Shown here in pieces: positions 8,213 through 44,493 of a stretch of 55,457 nucleotides of DNA. Source of the stretch: a virus (Duplodnaviria > Caudoviricetes); IMG/VR virus record IMGVR_UViG_3300020472_000032, positions 1 to 55,457 of that record, one strand, 5' to 3'. The translations under genes were made by a program, and so were the position numbers. Position 1 is the first letter of the stretch; every line of letters begins with the position of its first letter. The notes under the pieces were generated by a model. It did no database searches. It was given only the letters and a program-made list of their open reading frames with translations, and was not told the DNA's origin.

Positions 8213-9660
8213 ATATAATCAACTTTCTGCACGTTAAAAGGGTAGTGTGCTTCCCTATAGAACTTCTTTCGTTGTGTAAGATGCCTTTTGCTAAACTTAC
8301 AACTAGAAGTTATATCCCAAATTTGAATGTGATCTTTGTCTTTAGCTTTACGAATACCACGCCCTATGCTTTGTATTACTCTTACAAAAGACTTACCAGG
8401 CTCAATAAGAACAAGATTGAAGATGCGAGGTATATTGATTCCCACCGAGGCGACTCCATAAGTCGCAACAACAACCATATTCGTAGATTCGTTAATTTCA
8501 GTATAAGTGTCTTTCCTGTCTGCACTTTTCATTGCTCCTTTCACAAAGGTTGCATTTGGTAGCAGTTCTTGTAGCTTTTCACCACACTTAATGCGATCAA
8601 CAAGAACTAATGTATTACCATTCTTGCTCATTTCATCTATAAGGCCACTAATATAATTTAGCCTCTTTGGATCTGTTACCAAATATGTTAGCTCACTTTG
8701 ATAGTTTGGAAAGTCGGCTGTATCTTGCATTTGTATAACATCAATATTACACTCTGCTAATACGCCTTCTTCTTGTAATTCATGTGCAGATAGTTTGTTT
8801 ATAACTTGTCCTAAACTAGCACGTATGCCAAAAAACTCGTGTTGGTCTTTAGGTATTGTACCTGTTAATCCCCAACGTAATGGAACATTGCTAAATGGTC
8901 CTGTTAGTAGTTTCTTTAATACATCTGCTTTTGCTTGGTGAACTTCGTCTACCATAACACATATTACACCTTCTAAAAACTCATTTAAACTAGTTTCGCT
9001 TAACCCATCTCTAAAACGTTTTTCCATACTGTTTAAACTCTGCCATGTGCAGATAGTATGTGTTTTATCCAGTTCTTTCTTATCGCCAAAGTATACACCA
9101 ACATCTAAACCCATGTTATCGTAATCTTCAGCAGTCTGACGCACTAAATCTTTGTTTGGTACTATTACTACAGTTCTGCCATACTGTTCTACACGTTCAC
9201 TGAGTGATGCAGTAATTAATGTTTTACCTGCACCTGTTGCAATCTCTTGTACACATTGTGGTGTATCTAAAAACTGATTTATAATATCAACTTGGTAATC
9301 ACGTAGCACAATAGGTTCTCCTTCAATAGGGTGTCCCTTTGGCCATGTTAAATTTGTATATGTATTTTCTTCTACTGCTTCTGTAGCAAAATCTACATGC
9401 TGTCTATTATCTTGTAAATCTATTTCATACCCATCTGCTTCAAGCAATGGTAATATTTCATCTAGTAGATTAATATATGTGCTACCACCCATGCTAAAGT
9501 ATTGTATAGTACCATCCCATCTTCCTAGTTTATAAGCAGGAACATGATATGCATAAGGTAAAAAGAACTTTAGCTTGTCCATACATTTACGCCTGGTACT
9601 TGTAGCTAGTCCTTCTACTTTACAATTTACTTCATCTTTAAGTACAATTTTACATTTCAT
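8209..9660 (-). CDS. uvsW: UvsW-like SF2 DNA helicase
   Basis: LRDYQ, ATGAGKT, DEVH, GLTGT, GINIP, QSIGRGIR; N-terminal WDG motif. Confidence 0.93.
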   Translation of the reverse strand: MKCKIVLKDEVNCKVEGLATSTRRKCMDKLKFFLPYAYHVPAYKLGRWDGTIQYFSMGGSTYINLLDEILPLLEADGYEIDLQDNRQHVDFATEAVEENTYTNLTWPKGHPIEGEPIVLRDYQVDIINQFLDTPQCVQEIATGAGKTLITASLSERVEQYGRTVVIVPNKDLVRQTAEDYDNMGLDVGVYFGDKKELDKTHTICTWQSLNSMEKRFRDGLSETSLNEFLEGVICVMVDEVHQAKADVLKKLLTGPFSNVPLRWGLTGTIPKDQHEFFGIRASLGQVINKLSAHELQEEGVLAECNIDVIQMQDTADFPNYQSELTYLVTDPKRLNYISGLIDEMSKNGNTLVLVDRIKCGEKLQELLPNATFVKGAMKSADRKDTYTEINESTNMVVVATYGVASVGINIPRIFNLVLIEPGKSFVRVIQSIGRGIRKAKDKDHIQIWDITSSCKFSKRHLTQRKKFYREAHYPFNVQKVDYI

Positions 9661-9666
9661 AATAGT

Positions 9667-9695
9667 AGTTTACACTCTTTCTTCTAATATGTCAA
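9667..9695 (-). promoter_or_regulatory. sigma70-type promoter for uvsW operon
   Basis: TTGACA (9695-9690)-17 nt-TAAACT (9672-9667), then 6 nt to the ATG. Confidence 0.65.
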
Positions 9696-10320
9696 GATTA
9701 CGTTGCCACCATAATTTTTTTAATTCATTGAATTGATCGTGATCAAGTTTAATAGAGAACCTACGATTTAAGTAATGAAAAAGTCGTTCACTTTCTTTAG
9801 TTGAATTCCAAAATTGAAATGGATCTAAACATTTAAAATCCTGATTAGGTAAATGTTTTAAGTGTAAATTTAATTGTTCTGGTGTTATATAAAGGTCACC
9901 TTTATTTGTTGTTAGTTTCATATCATGTAACCCTGCACAAAATTTACCTGCTTTTTTATTTGTTGCTATTAGAAAAATAAAAACACTATTCCAATCCTCA
10001 AATGATTTAATCATTTGTTGAGTATGCTTTAGATGTTTATATTTTAATATTAGTATCCAGTTTGCATGTTGCCTATGTAAGTTAATAAGTGTATCGTCGG
10101 TTGCCCAAGATGGATCTAATTCCATACTAGGAACATGACCTTTATCCTTACTCCAACTTTCATAATTTAAATTAATGTGCTGACCATAAACATTCCATTT
10201 GTTTTTGTCATGGTCATAATAAACCTTCTGTGTCACAAAAGGTGTTTGTTGGCTTAGAGCCCACGTTAAGAACTCACCTCCTGCTCCTGGTTGATATACT
10301 ATGTTTACTACTTTTTTCAT
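9670..10320 (-). CDS. hypothetical protein, possible degenerate P-loop/sulfotransferase-like fold
   Basis: N-terminal IVYQPGAGGEFLTWAL loop; start moved to ATG 10320 because the upstream extension lies inside a terminator. Confidence 0.55.
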   Translation of the reverse strand: MKKVVNIVYQPGAGGEFLTWALSQQTPFVTQKVYYDHDKNKWNVYGQHINLNYESWSKDKGHVPSMELDPSWATDDTLINLHRQHANWILILKYKHLKHTQQMIKSFEDWNSVFIFLIATNKKAGKFCAGLHDMKLTTNKGDLYITPEQLNLHLKHLPNQDFKCLDPFQFWNSTKESERLFHYLNRRFSIKLDHDQFNELKKLWWQRNLDILEERV

Positions 10321-10328
10321 ATTAATAT

Positions 10329-10362
10329 AAAAGTGGGAAGGAGCCAATTAAGACTCCTCCCC
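10329..10362 (-). terminator. intrinsic terminator after AAA ATPase
   Basis: GGGGAGGAGTC-ttaatt-GGCTCCTTCCC followed by ACTTTT. Confidence 0.7.
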
Positions 10363-10407
10363 TACGGTCCATTGGAGTGAGAGAGGGCGTAGGTTGGACC
10401 GTGACCC

Positions 10408-11250
10408 TTAGCTGACTACTCGCTTCATGCAAGTAACCTCAACATATCGTTTCCATGTCTTAGGTTGATGTTTCATCAAATCAGCAATCTTTGTTACCAT
10501 TCGCAAACTAACTTCTCTCAATTTTTCTTTGTTTGCGGCCATGTAATTCATTAATGCAGTTTCCTGCGACTTTTCAAATTTGTAATCCGAAAGCATACCG
10601 TCTTTAACCAACTGCTTACACCTTAGGAACTTGTCCCTCATAGTATCAAGTGTAAGATCTAAATAGTGACATCTAGACATAATAGCATCTAGGTGATCTT
10701 TAAGTTTACCTCTTGTACCTTCGAACTTTAAGTTTGTAATAAAGATAACCGAACCTTTAAATTCAAATCTATCAGGAATACCTTCACGTCTTAAAAGTGA
10801 ACTATCTGTATTCCAACTTAGGAACCTATGTTTACTACTATCTAGAGCCGCCTTAAGCAAGTTCAAACTAGTTTCATCATGTAATACTGTATCACAGTCG
10901 TCCATAACCAACACAGACCCTTTGTCTGAATTTTCATAAAGAACTTTGTACAAACCAATGGCACTAGAAGCACCTTTAATAACTTGGAAACGATCTCGTT
11001 TACCAGCCATTTTATCGAACATTCTGTTTTCGTTAAGCACTTGCTCAACACCAAATGATTTACCAACACCTGGAGGTCCAGTAACAACCATACCTCTAAC
11101 AACACCATCAACTGATGCTTGTGTCATATCATTTAAGATATCAAATCGTTCACGTAAACGTTTGATAATTTGAACATCTGTTTCTACAGGCTTTTCGGCC
11201 TTCTTAACACTTACTTTTGTATTTTTGGAAATTTTTAATTTAGTAGCCAT
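10408..11250 (-). CDS. AAA+-type ATPase
   Basis: Walker A GPPGVGKS, Walker B LVMDDCD, sensor IFITN, SR finger; GGAG RBS before ATG 11250. Confidence 0.85.
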   Translation of the reverse strand: MATKLKISKNTKVSVKKAEKPVETDVQIIKRLRERFDILNDMTQASVDGVVRGMVVTGPPGVGKSFGVEQVLNENRMFDKMAGKRDRFQVIKGASSAIGLYKVLYENSDKGSVLVMDDCDTVLHDETSLNLLKAALDSSKHRFLSWNTDSSLLRREGIPDRFEFKGSVIFITNLKFEGTRGKLKDHLDAIMSRCHYLDLTLDTMRDKFLRCKQLVKDGMLSDYKFEKSQETALMNYMAANKEKLREVSLRMVTKIADLMKHQPKTWKRYVEVTCMKRVVS

Positions 11251-11290
11251 GTGTCTCACTCCTTGACTTGTTTTTATTACCTACACTATT

Positions 11291-11319
11291 ATAATACGAC
11301 AGGGTGCATAAAAGGTCAA
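11291..11319 (-). promoter_or_regulatory. sigma70-type early promoter
   Basis: TTGACC-17 nt-TATTAT with A-rich upstream. Confidence 0.7.
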
Positions 11320-41077: not shown

Positions 41078-43264
41078 TTAGATTAAGTGTTTCTCAGCTA
41101 TGAATCTGTAATTCATATTGTTAGATGTTGCAGGAGTTAGACGTAATCTAACATTTCCACCATTAATATCAGCTGATACTGTGAACTGAACTTCGTCACT
41201 TTGAAGAGATCCGTATGTTGTTTGATAAACATCAGTTCCGTTATGTAATACTAAAATTTGTGTTATGTGAAATTTAGTTGCAGTAGTATTTTCACATGAT
41301 ATAAAATACTTTGCACTTCTATATGTTGCTATAGGCCAACTATCTACAGAAAATTGAGCTGTTGATGAACTAGTTGCTGTACTTGCATGACTATGATATG
41401 CATTATGCATGTGTATATTGTTTGTAAAAACAGTACCAAGTTGATCGCTTGATGATCCTAAATCAATTCCGCCTTGACCGCTAACAACTAATGTACCAGT
41501 TGCATCAGGAAATGATATAGTTCTATCTGCTGTAGGTGTTGTTGGCTGAACTACTAAACTATGAGAACCACCCCAAGTATCATAACGTAATACTTGATCT
41601 GCAGAAAGTGTAAAATTATGATTATCAAATACATATGATAAAGTTTCTGATCCACCTTTTTGTAAATGTATTTCGACTCTACCATCTTCACTACTGTCAG
41701 AGTCATCTATAATCCTACCAACTATTTTACCATAATTTTTATTAGCAGAAGCATCATTTTTTCCTCTAAAAGTTATATGACCTAAATAATCTAATCCAGC
41801 CGGACTAGCAGAATCTCTAGCTAATACTATACTAGGCCCCGCAGTAGAACCAGCATCAGCAGAAGTTAATGTAATATCTCCTGTAACCTGAATATTACCA
41901 GGACCATTAATATTATTACTATTGAGATCTAAGTTACCGCCCAATTGAGGAGTTGAATCATTTACTACTTCAGCAACTACTACTGACCATTCTAATGCAT
42001 TTCCAGCACTATTTGACCTTAAATATTTAAGAGGATCAAAATCACCTGGACCATCTGTTAATTCTACAAATGTAGTTGTAGTAAAGTTAGTCCATGCACT
42101 ACCAATATAACCTTCAAATTCATTGCTGTTTGTATTATAACGGATCATGCCTACTTCTGGCGAACCAGGTCTTTGTGCATTACTACCACCTGGTAGTTTT
42201 AAAGTACCAGTAGTATCTATTGTCATGTTAGTGCCATCAAACCCAAATGATGAATTAGTAGTTAACCTACCACTTGAACCAGCATAAACAATTTTATTAT
42301 TAGCTAAATCACCTACTTCTAATTCAGTAAATGTACCTCTGCCTTGTGATGTTAAATTACCAGTAAGCGAAGTAATACCTTTAACAGTTAAATTATCTTC
42401 TGCTTCTAATTCACCTAGGTGTACTTTGATATAATCTACAATGTTTACATTACCAGAAGTTTGTCCATCTTCTGTAGGACATGAAATAAAAGCAACTTCA
42501 TCTTCGCTTTCGTCATATATGGCACCTACGTTATTTGTGTTTGTAGATGTGCCATCACCTCTAGTAACAATAAACCCTTGGTCGACTGTTTGTGTTGTAG
42601 TGCCTTCGCCTAATTTAATGAGTGCTTGGTTAATAGATGTACTAACAAGTTGTGTTTGAGTACCACTTACTTGAAAGTTTCCTGTCATAGTAACTGTACC
42701 ACCAACGTTCATGTCTCCACCAACGTTTAATGCACCGCCAACACCAGCACCTCCAGATACAACCAATGCACCTGTAGAAGTACTAGAACTTGCAGTACTG
42801 TCATTGATATCAACTCTTGCATCAAAATCTGCAATACCACCTACCAGCACAGTAGAATCAAGTGTTACTGCACCTGATGCTTTTAAAGTTCCGCCTATAT
42901 CTAATAATTTTGTTGGAACAGCTAAACCAATTCCAACATTACCATCAGAATGGATAATCATACGTTGAGTATTAGCAGTATAAAAATCTATTTGATCGTT
43001 GTCTGCTCCGTCAGCGTCTTCAACTTGAATATATGTATCTAAATCTATATCTTGTACTAAGGTAGTAAATGTTTTCCAATTGGAACCATTGTGTCCTTCA
43101 AATCTAGATGTTGTTGAATTAAATCTTATATCACCAGCACTAGGTGAGCCTGGTCTGTTAGCTGTAGTTCCTGAAGGAAGATTTAACGAACCGGTTATAT
43201 CTAGCTTCAATTCATTTGATTGAGTTAATATCAGATTTTGTTGGTGATCTAATTTAATTGCCAT
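41078..43264 (-). CDS. fibre-like virion structural protein
   Basis: Two RP..G.IR(F/Y)N..FEG..W modules; TPQLGGNLDLN; C-terminal YRSAKY..HNG..YG domain. Confidence 0.75.
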   Translation of the reverse strand: MAIKLDHQQNLILTQSNELKLDITGSLNLPSGTTANRPGSPSAGDIRFNSTTSRFEGHNGSNWKTFTTLVQDIDLDTYIQVEDADGADNDQIDFYTANTQRMIIHSDGNVGIGLAVPTKLLDIGGTLKASGAVTLDSTVLVGGIADFDARVDINDSTASSSTSTGALVVSGGAGVGGALNVGGDMNVGGTVTMTGNFQVSGTQTQLVSTSINQALIKLGEGTTTQTVDQGFIVTRGDGTSTNTNNVGAIYDESEDEVAFISCPTEDGQTSGNVNIVDYIKVHLGELEAEDNLTVKGITSLTGNLTSQGRGTFTELEVGDLANNKIVYAGSSGRLTTNSSFGFDGTNMTIDTTGTLKLPGGSNAQRPGSPEVGMIRYNTNSNEFEGYIGSAWTNFTTTTFVELTDGPGDFDPLKYLRSNSAGNALEWSVVVAEVVNDSTPQLGGNLDLNSNNINGPGNIQVTGDITLTSADAGSTAGPSIVLARDSASPAGLDYLGHITFRGKNDASANKNYGKIVGRIIDDSDSSEDGRVEIHLQKGGSETLSYVFDNHNFTLSADQVLRYDTWGGSHSLVVQPTTPTADRTISFPDATGTLVVSGQGGIDLGSSSDQLGTVFTNNIHMHNAYHSHASTATSSSTAQFSVDSWPIATYRSAKYFISCENTTATKFHITQILVLHNGTDVYQTTYGSLQSDEVQFTVSADINGGNVRLRLTPATSNNMNYRFIAEKHLI

Positions 43265-44284: not shown

Positions 44285-44493
44285 TAAGTGAGTAGGGAGG
44301 ATTCGGGTATACCTCCAAACCGTCGACCGAGATACCATTCTCAAAGCCAGGTAGCCTAGTTCCGCTCGGGAGAGCGATGTGATACAACGCATTTCTGCAA
44401 CCATACCTGGGTACCACCCCTAACTAGCCAAGTTACACACTCTGGTAAATGTGCGTTTCCTTGCACTACTCTAACAAGACCGTCGCCTTATTA
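44285..44493 (-). ncRNA. structured non-coding RNA of about 200 nt (resembles the manA RNA motif class; unverified)
   Basis: GC-rich intergenic island with closing helix GAGTAG/CTACTC, several hairpins and a pseudoknot; own sigma70 promoter and terminator. Confidence 0.75.

Follow-up and report, generated by a model that had tools for sequence, protein, structure and literature searches.

A hairpin loop at the 3' end of a T4-like phage ATPase unit matches and covaries with the start region of its own gene: probable translational self-repression

Pairing between a 3' untranslated region (UTR) and the ribosome-binding site (RBS) of the same mRNA is known from very few experimentally studied bacterial-type mRNAs, the main one being icaR of Staphylococcus aureus. 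As described in excerpts of PMC3868564, the icaR 3' UTR contains a pyrimidine-rich anti-Shine-Dalgarno (anti-SD) motif that pairs with the SD sequence of its own mRNA, blocks initiation and creates a substrate for RNase III. The autoregulatory small RNAs OppZ and CarZ of Vibrio cholerae, which derive from 3' UTRs and share the terminator of their transcription unit, pair with the mRNA of that unit and generate a negative feedback (PMC7398697, in extract). In Bacillus subtilis, anti-SD-like 8-mers pair with an RBS located hundreds of nucleotides (nt) upstream of them, repress initiation and favor mRNA decay, and according to the same extracts these sequences are depleted from natural genes (PMC12697547). 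In this work we have analyzed a stretch of 55,457 nt (hereafter the window; IMG/VR record IMGVR_UViG_3300020472_000032), a fragment of a T4-like phage genome whose record is estimated to be about 15% complete, where the gene of an AAA ATPase is followed by a small hairpin displaying in its loop the complement of the SD region of that same gene.

The minus strand carries most of the window genes and all the features of the ATPase unit, which are ordered as promoter, leader of about 35 nt, coding sequence, hairpin and terminator (Table 1). The first-pass annotation, made from the sequence of the window, had described the SD region, the loop motif, the hairpin and the terminator, and all its coordinates and sequence statements were correct when rechecked. 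It had also proposed a self-limiting control of the ATPase through its own SD, by fold-back or by an anti-SD small RNA in trans, a proposal now supported by the conservation of the hairpin beyond that of the coding sequence, by covariation, by loops that are antisense to both SD and start codon, and by folding predictions. We consider that translational self-repression of the ATPase by pairing of the 3' loop with the start region, in cis or in trans, is the probable function of this element, with a probability of about 0.65 as judged from the comparative data presented below. An open-access literature search yielded no description of such an element for a phage. The Rfam covariance models gave no match between positions 9000 and 13000 at E values up to 10, and none reached its gathering score in the element regions of the window and of the relatives L012, L050, L091 and L312 (relatives are numbered with the prefix L).

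Inside the window, the 3' region of 108 nt folds with -35.2 kcal/mol (z = -3.2). The sequence GGAGTGAGA is found as an exact match in the 55 kb solely at the SD and, on the opposite strand, opposite the loop, and the loop motif has a single occurrence even when up to 3 mismatches are allowed. Simple arithmetic predicts about 0.001 exact 9-nt complements between a 23-nt start region and a 23-nt loop, and about 0.025 when the whole 450 nt downstream are allowed. Among dinucleotide shuffles, 37 of 1000 reached 9 nt, a figure to which we give little weight because the routine may mix incompletely and thus may overstate chance. Taken from the window alone, the match between SD and loop is suggestive and leaves the matter unsettled, so that the decisive evidence comes from the relatives.

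A protein-seeded scan of viral contigs yielded 498 relatives of the ATPase locus, of which the best 80 were used (98-60% amino acid identity). A second protein-seeded scan supplied further loci; together the scans report roughly 500-600 relatives, with the best 80 taken from each. The hairpin of the window and that of L007 are identical in 38 of 39 nt, while their coding sequences share just 73.4% nucleotide identity, which argues that the hairpin is under selection. It is almost unchanged in L001-L008 and L026, where the SD 9-mer is also constant though the surrounding nucleotides and the length of the spacer vary. The stems of the terminator differ among relatives by compensatory changes, and the hairpin upstream stays fixed. 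All the 53 unique loci of this SD type (94 loci) carry an identical GGAGTGAGA, with a spacer of 8-10 nt to the ATG.

A sister clade, represented by L012-L025 (66-70% identity), has a hairpin at the same place with quite different stems and a near-invariant loop of about 30 nt, which includes CTCTCACTC. This same loop is flanked by no fewer than 12 different stems. In an alignment of 22 sequences, double compensatory changes were found for 9 of 9 predicted pairs, the broken cells being mostly window-type sequences that the aligner had put out of register. Judged from these substitutions, the hairpin is an RNA structure. The locus L112 (2323-2391) shows a chimeric hairpin with a broken stem, whose 5' arm belongs to one stem type (GTGCAATAG) and whose 3' arm belongs to another (CACCAGTTAG), as would result from recombination within the conserved loop.

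The linkage of the element to the ATPase gene is tight. A 22-nt motif of the sister-clade loop was found in 84 viral contigs, and in 82 of them it is preceded, on the same strand, by an ATPase homologue whose end lies 14-63 nt away; in the remaining 2 contigs the motif is located 66 or 88 nt from the contig end. The near-invariance of almost the whole loop can be explained because it is antisense to the region of the SD and the start codon. The predicted duplex consists of two blocks separated by a small internal loop, one pairing GAGTGAGA(G) with (C)TCTCACTC and the other pairing ATGCAGACA(G) with (C)TGTCTGCGT. Among the 43 unique pairs of a start region with its loop, 40 are predicted to form at least 7 base pairs (bp) on the SD and to pair at least 8 of the positions 0 to +9, and 41 to have a fully paired AUG. 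The cognate duplex has a median energy of -26.6 kcal/mol, compared with medians of -15.3 kcal/mol for 860 shuffled start regions and -15.6 kcal/mol for 588 other SD-plus-ATG sites of the same loci; only 0.8% and 0.7% of these controls, respectively, reached the cognate median. For the window type the prediction is limited to the 9-bp SD helix and one additional helix of 3 bp (GGC/GCC) at codon 2. We have also observed that many loci of the class L088-L164 have an extra first hairpin between the ATPase stop codon and the main hairpin, in whose loop (e.g., ATTCTCACTTAC or AACTCACTCA) 7-8 nt are likewise the complement of the SD flank AGTGAGAA. These loci have two consecutive loops with a seed.

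As a check, the first-pass annotation had proposed to look for covariation between loop and SD region among homologous loci, and the outcome was positive: different SD flanks carry matching different loops, and the stems covary. In the largest other group the start region is GGAGCCAAC(C/A/T)ATG and the hairpin has a CCCGGG-type stem with the loop ATTGGTTGGCTCCG, where (G)GTTGGCTCC matches the SD GGAGCCAAC(C) over 9-11 nt, reaching the A of the ATG. This hairpin is found 17-639 nt after the ATPase stop codon, with small open reading frames (ORFs) between them, but always right before the terminator. The 14-mer of this loop type was present in 120 contigs: in 60 of them it follows the ATPase on the same strand and always lies in a hairpin context, and the other 60 are mostly chance matches outside hairpins, 6 of them with hairpin context and all 6 within 543 nt of a contig end. 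A further SD flank, GGAGCTAGA, is matched by a different loop, TCTAGCTCC. A third pair is that of L312, where AGGAGCTAGA is matched by TCTAGCTCCT in a hairpin 810 nt after the stop codon, and in L308 AAGGAGCTAG is matched by CTAGCTCCTT at 695 nt; both hairpins lie directly before a terminator. Complementarity to the start region of the first gene is thus kept even where the hairpin lies 17-810 nt past its stop codon, as expected for base pairing with the mRNA of the own unit.

Hairpins were also detected without regard to the flank, the sole requirements being a loop with CTCC at its 3' end and a stem of 7 bp or more. This flank-blind detector found 91 hairpins in 89 of 162 unique loci. The pairing extended at least 5 nt beyond the GGAG/CTCC core for 67 of the 91 hairpins with their cognate start regions, compared with 0.64% of 9332 non-cognate pairs, i.e., those with a start region of another flank. 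A matrix of cognate and non-cognate energies over the 450 nt downstream was discarded as too noisy, being clear just for the window type and the GGAGCCAAC type.

The predicted transcript of the window (954-958 nt) was also folded, using truncated natural sequences as controls. In the minimum free energy (MFE) structure of the full transcript, the SD is paired with the loop motif. The energy required to expose the 9 bases of the SD is 2.3 kcal/mol when just the first 120 nt are folded and 2.9 kcal/mol when the 3' UTR is left off, but 10.7 kcal/mol in the full-length transcript. The opening energy changes in the same direction in L012 (1.1 to 3.6 kcal/mol), L050 (1.1 to 5.2 kcal/mol) and L009 (2.9 to 5.7 kcal/mol). 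The SD is therefore predicted to be free in the nascent RNA and masked in the full-length RNA. In L057 the predicted MFE partner of the SD GGAGCCAGA is the internal coding sequence TCTGGCTCC, located about 322-335 nt before the transcript end, and not the 3' loop.

These data suggest a mechanism in which the ATPase gene would form its own early transcription unit ending in the hairpin and the terminator. Once the 3' end is transcribed, the loop would pair with the SD, and in the sister clades also with the start codon, and this duplex would block the binding of the 30S subunit and limit the translation of the ATPase. If the pairing occurs in cis, the full-length mRNA would fold back and ribosomes would load on the nascent mRNA only, yielding a short synthesis pulse per transcript, which agrees with the fold predictions. 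If it occurs in trans, a piece of about 80 nt comprising the hairpin and the terminator would persist as a 3'-derived small RNA. The latter agrees with the module of a seed in a loop followed by a terminator and with the second seed-bearing hairpin of many sister-clade loci, as well as with the fact that the hairpin stays beside the terminator when ORFs are inserted upstream. More tentatively, it is possible, although we hold it to be short of probable, that aquatic T4-like phages carry a family of "anti-start" hairpins acting as a per-transcript timer. The ATPase would be translated only while its mRNA is being synthesized, the last 80 nt of the tail would silence their own message, the released tail may also silence sister messages, and the match would be re-tuned as the start region drifts.

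Table 1. Features of the ATPase unit in the window
Feature	Coordinates	Strand	Details
SD region GGAGTGAGA	11254..11262	-	Target of the 3' loop; exactly complementary over 9 nt to 10374-10382; spacer of 3 nt to the ATG
Hairpin displaying the anti-SD (8 bp, 23-nt loop)	10364..10402	-	Fold; conservation in L007; covarying stems
Hairpin arms and loop	10402-10395 (arm ACGGTCCA); 10371-10364 (arm TGGACCGT); 10394-10372 (loop)	-	
Anti-SD motif TCTCACTCC	10374..10382	-	3' half of the loop; exact complement of the SD region GGAGTGAGA; partner of the SD in the MFE fold of the full transcript
Intrinsic terminator	10325..10362	-	Hairpin 10362-10335, 11 bp (7 G-C), then ACTTTTATAT
AAA ATPase gene (280 amino acids)	10408..11250	-	Homologue of T4 nrdC.10, function unknown; Pfam, PHROG, tblastn
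ATPase start codon ATG	11250-11248	-	
ATPase stop codon TAA	10410-10408	-	
Predicted sigma-70-like early promoter of the ATPase unit	11291..11319	-	TTGACC, 17-nt spacer, TATTAT; 10/12 consensus matches

The ATPase matches the Pfam families AAA and AAA_16, belongs to PHROG 1250 (E = 2e-81) and shares 34% identity with NrdC.10 of T4 in tblastn, a product whose gene is listed, in the extract of PMC1524935 that mentions it, just as a conserved ORF with a match to AAA ATPases. The region gave no blastn match to cultured phages, and every tblastn identity with them was below 60%. The homologues of L012-L080 mostly have 327-359 amino acids, with an extra N-terminal segment of about 50-75 amino acids (e.g., MQKVLVRNGEYNKMP...); this segment is missing from the window clade (273-281 amino acids), and the proteins of L009-L011 (288 amino acids) are shorter too. 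The transcription start is a prediction, from which the length of the leader was inferred. A second TATAAT overlaps the TATTAT of the promoter, 3 nt further on, and the promoter overlaps the stop codon of an upstream ORF of 242 amino acids, an arrangement also found in relatives. The description of this early ATPase as strongly promoted holds as far as the consensus match of its promoter, which is its only basis, and the suggestion that the protein is perhaps toxic found no support, nor anything against it.

Directly after the terminator there is an ORF of 216 amino acids (9670-10320, minus strand) that has no Pfam or PHROG family and no visible SD or promoter of its own. It is missing from L002, L004 and L005, where a helicase gene follows the terminator with its own TTGACA-17-TATAAT promoter. 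For both reasons, this ORF looks like an inserted cassette expressed by read-through of the terminator. Elsewhere in the window, positions 44286-44493 (minus strand) match the manA RNA motif of Rfam (RF01745; 74.5 bits, gathering score 55.2, E = 5e-17).

Several observations weigh against self-repression through the 3' loop. No such loop is present in 15 of the best 80 relatives (L027-L040 and L049), and nothing comparable was found in six cultured phages (T4, PA5oct, S13, Vibrio D531, Aeromonas 31.2 and Ac42). In several lineages the SD flank has changed and the loop has not followed: the match is poor in L320, L331 and L362, it is limited to 7 nt in the L017 type (6 loci; GGAGTGTAA facing TCTCACTCC), and in the L044/L057 type (7 loci), where GGAGCC(T/A)GA faces the loop TCTAGCTCC, there are 6 nt plus scattered pairs and a predicted 5-bp helix over the AUG. 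L009-L011 have no hairpin, and show ACTCCTTTCCCC... before the terminator with a 6-nt match. The L043 clade (8 loci) is another of the lineages with a changed flank, its SD match needing a bulge, and over the 450 nt downstream the cognate duplex energy is not the best one for the L043, L057 and L009 types. The 3' UTR had no effect on the folding of the SD in L043 and L057, and likewise there was no change in the loop-less L027. In addition, RNAfold cannot model a pseudoknot between a loop and a strand, and the MFE structure opens the stem of the hairpin to form the long-range helix. As to the window itself, among 133 ORF start regions paired with the loop that of the ATPase comes second (-19.2 versus -19.3 kcal/mol), and some purine-rich coding stretches pair with the loop better than the SD does, down to -25.7 kcal/mol, which makes raw duplex-energy scans non-specific. 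The covariation itself, as read from the sequences, is based on few events, about three or four haplotype switches, the haplotypes being nearly invariant within. Finally, marine metatranscriptome runs cover little of the region (no more than 0.15 of its sampled words), and their contigs, which are fragmentary relatives (90-99% alike) with neither ends nor joints, cannot show RNA ends; one of them, of 159 nt, spans 10358-10508.

Some of these loci deserve a description of their own. In L027-L040 a long hairpin is found about 10-45 nt after the ATPase stop codon, with TTGAC, the -35 box of the next promoter, in its loop and then TATAAT or TATACT; it is a terminator/promoter cassette of the PeSL kind (PMC4122927, in extract). 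In L043, L046-L048, L051, L052, L065 and L068 the 5' half of the loop, ATTGCCTAGT, is the exact 10-nt complement of the predicted leader start ACTAGGCAAT, so this clade has, on its sequence, a different geometry of 5'-3' pairing. A similar second helix between the leader start and the 5' half of the loop (TGTAGGT and ACCTACG in the window) was rejected as a general feature, since across loci it was no better than shuffled controls and it is lost in L007. The start region of an ORF of 728 amino acids located at 41078-43264 (window 43235-43264, minus strand; GAAAGAGTGTAGGTATG), without any Pfam match, is the one that pairs with the 5' half of the window loop at -19.3 kcal/mol, the -19.2 kcal/mol of the ATPase SD being for the 3' half.

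Other explanations have to be weighed. The hairpin and the terminator could mainly constitute a trans-acting small RNA directed to other phage or host mRNAs, with the own SD as one target or as a side effect. The module resembles a 3'-derived small RNA, with a loop-displayed seed followed by a terminator with a U-tail, many sister-clade loci add a second hairpin with a loop, TTCTCACTTAC, complementary to the SD flank as well, the start region of ORF 43264 pairs about equally well, and the hairpin keeps its place beside the terminator even with extra ORFs between it and the ATPase gene. We find this alternative unlikely, since from clade to clade the loop changes together with the ATPase start region, start codon and following codons included, which targets elsewhere would not explain; moreover, the element was never found away from the ATPase transcription unit. 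The pairing could instead protect the mRNA, either by masking the GGAG of the SD from a RegB-like endonuclease or by tying the 5' and 3' ends against RNases, prolonging the life of this early mRNA. There are precedents for both: extracts of PMC3014915 describe that RegB of T4 cuts within the GGAG of early start regions and that RNA secondary structure protects from it, and those of PMC5737220 that the stability of the hbs mRNA of B. subtilis is controlled by an interaction of its 5' and 3' UTRs. This is rather improbable, because a duplex over the SD and the AUG also excludes ribosomes and because the SD flank UGAGA departs from the strong RegB consensus GGAGRAYARAA (PMC3014915). A search for the RegB family in the window gave no match either, a weak argument given that the record is about 15% complete and that the control genomes yielded none.

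It could also be argued that there is no functional pairing at all, and that a conserved 3' stability, terminator or recombination element has a pyrimidine-rich loop that resembles an anti-SD by chance. Every loop contains CUCC and every start region GGAG, so that any strong SD would match, and composition accounts for part of the energy, as the shuffled purine-rich start regions still have a median of -15.3 kcal/mol. The window loop also resembles the tail of the 16S ribosomal RNA, which counts in favor of this explanation, as does the chimeric hairpin of L112, which suggests recombination inside the conserved loop. T4-type phages carry, moreover, conserved terminator/promoter cassettes, the PeSLs (PMC4122927, in extract). 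However, the extension beyond the 4-nt core is clade-specific and cognate (67/91 versus 0.64% for non-cognate pairs), the GGAGCCAAC/GTTGGCTCC pair shows no likeness to the 16S tail outside that core, the loop of the sister clade is complementary to the AUG and codons 2-4 too, and the loop motif is found once per 55 kb and not as a repeat, all of which makes a chance resemblance quite improbable. Action at the DNA level, with the two sites as inverted copies of a protein-binding site, for instance for looping across the gene, would account for the inverted repeat that the SD and loop sites form in the DNA, but it is very improbable indeed: the 3' copy is always located in the loop of a hairpin with covarying stems, a single-strand feature, the 5' copy falls on the SD and the start codon, and each haplotype switch would need a protein that co-evolves with both sites.

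If self-repression by the 3' loop is confirmed, the locus would provide a natural example supported by comparisons across hundreds of environmental phage contigs and with several co-varying "alleles" of start region and loop, which would be ready-made compensatory pairs for experiments. It would also mean that the nrdC.10-type ATPase, a widespread phage gene of unknown function, has a tightly controlled dosage or timing.

With regard to known systems, the PeSLs of T4-type phages consist of a stem-loop and then an early promoter at the boundaries of gene cassettes and are repeated many times per genome (PMC4122927 and PMC2839356, both in extract). The ATPase unit shares with them a terminator that in relatives is followed by TTGACA-17-TATAAT. 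A PeSL is defined by its terminator and promoter, whereas the anti-SD hairpin occurs once, precedes the terminator and is complementary to the start region of a single gene; no repetition of the PeSL type was found in the 55 kb, a count that covered the loop motif and not the part of the terminator and the next promoter. As in the long-range anti-SD sequences of B. subtilis, a pyrimidine-rich anti-SD sequence is placed hundreds of nt past the RBS, but in the phages it is conserved and displayed in a loop, which implies a deliberate use.

In the hok/sok system, translation of the full-length mRNA is prevented by the pairing of its 5' region with a 3' element. The first-pass annotation had drawn a parallel with hok, and a 3' element pairing with a 5' region is indeed predicted here, but the likeness goes no further. 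The locus has no small toxin gene, overlapping mok frame, antisense Sok gene or 3' trimming switch, and the lists of ORFs and promoters of the window show no obvious antisense promoter or frame for a small toxin. In addition, the window pairing involves the SD and not the extreme 5' end. Pairing of the extreme ends as in hok, looked for between the upstream leader and the 5' half of the loop, was no better than shuffled across loci, with the L043 clade as the sole exception. The sib element of lambda controls int after transcription through RNase III cutting and 3' decay; it is likewise a phage 3' element downstream of the gene, but the ATPase element differs from it in its predicted pairing with the ribosome-binding site.

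Like the autoregulatory small RNAs OppZ and CarZ, the phage element is complementary to the mRNA of its own unit, and its hairpin followed by a terminator would fit a small RNA released from the 3' end with the terminator of that mRNA. OppZ reportedly has its target within the operon and, together with Hfq, brings about Rho-dependent termination, whereas the phage target would be the SD and the start codon of the first gene. In icaR, as here, a 3' UTR motif is complementary to the SD of the same mRNA, with an exact match of 9 nt in the window. The phage motif differs in being located in a small hairpin loop directly before the terminator of an early gene, in its longer match (9-11 nt, and in the sister clade about 18 bp divided over two blocks), and in a predicted pairing that covaries across hundreds of phage contigs. 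By analogy, the mechanism proposed for the ATPase appears to be closest to the pairing of the 5' and 3' UTRs of icaR and to the autoregulatory small RNAs derived from 3' UTRs.

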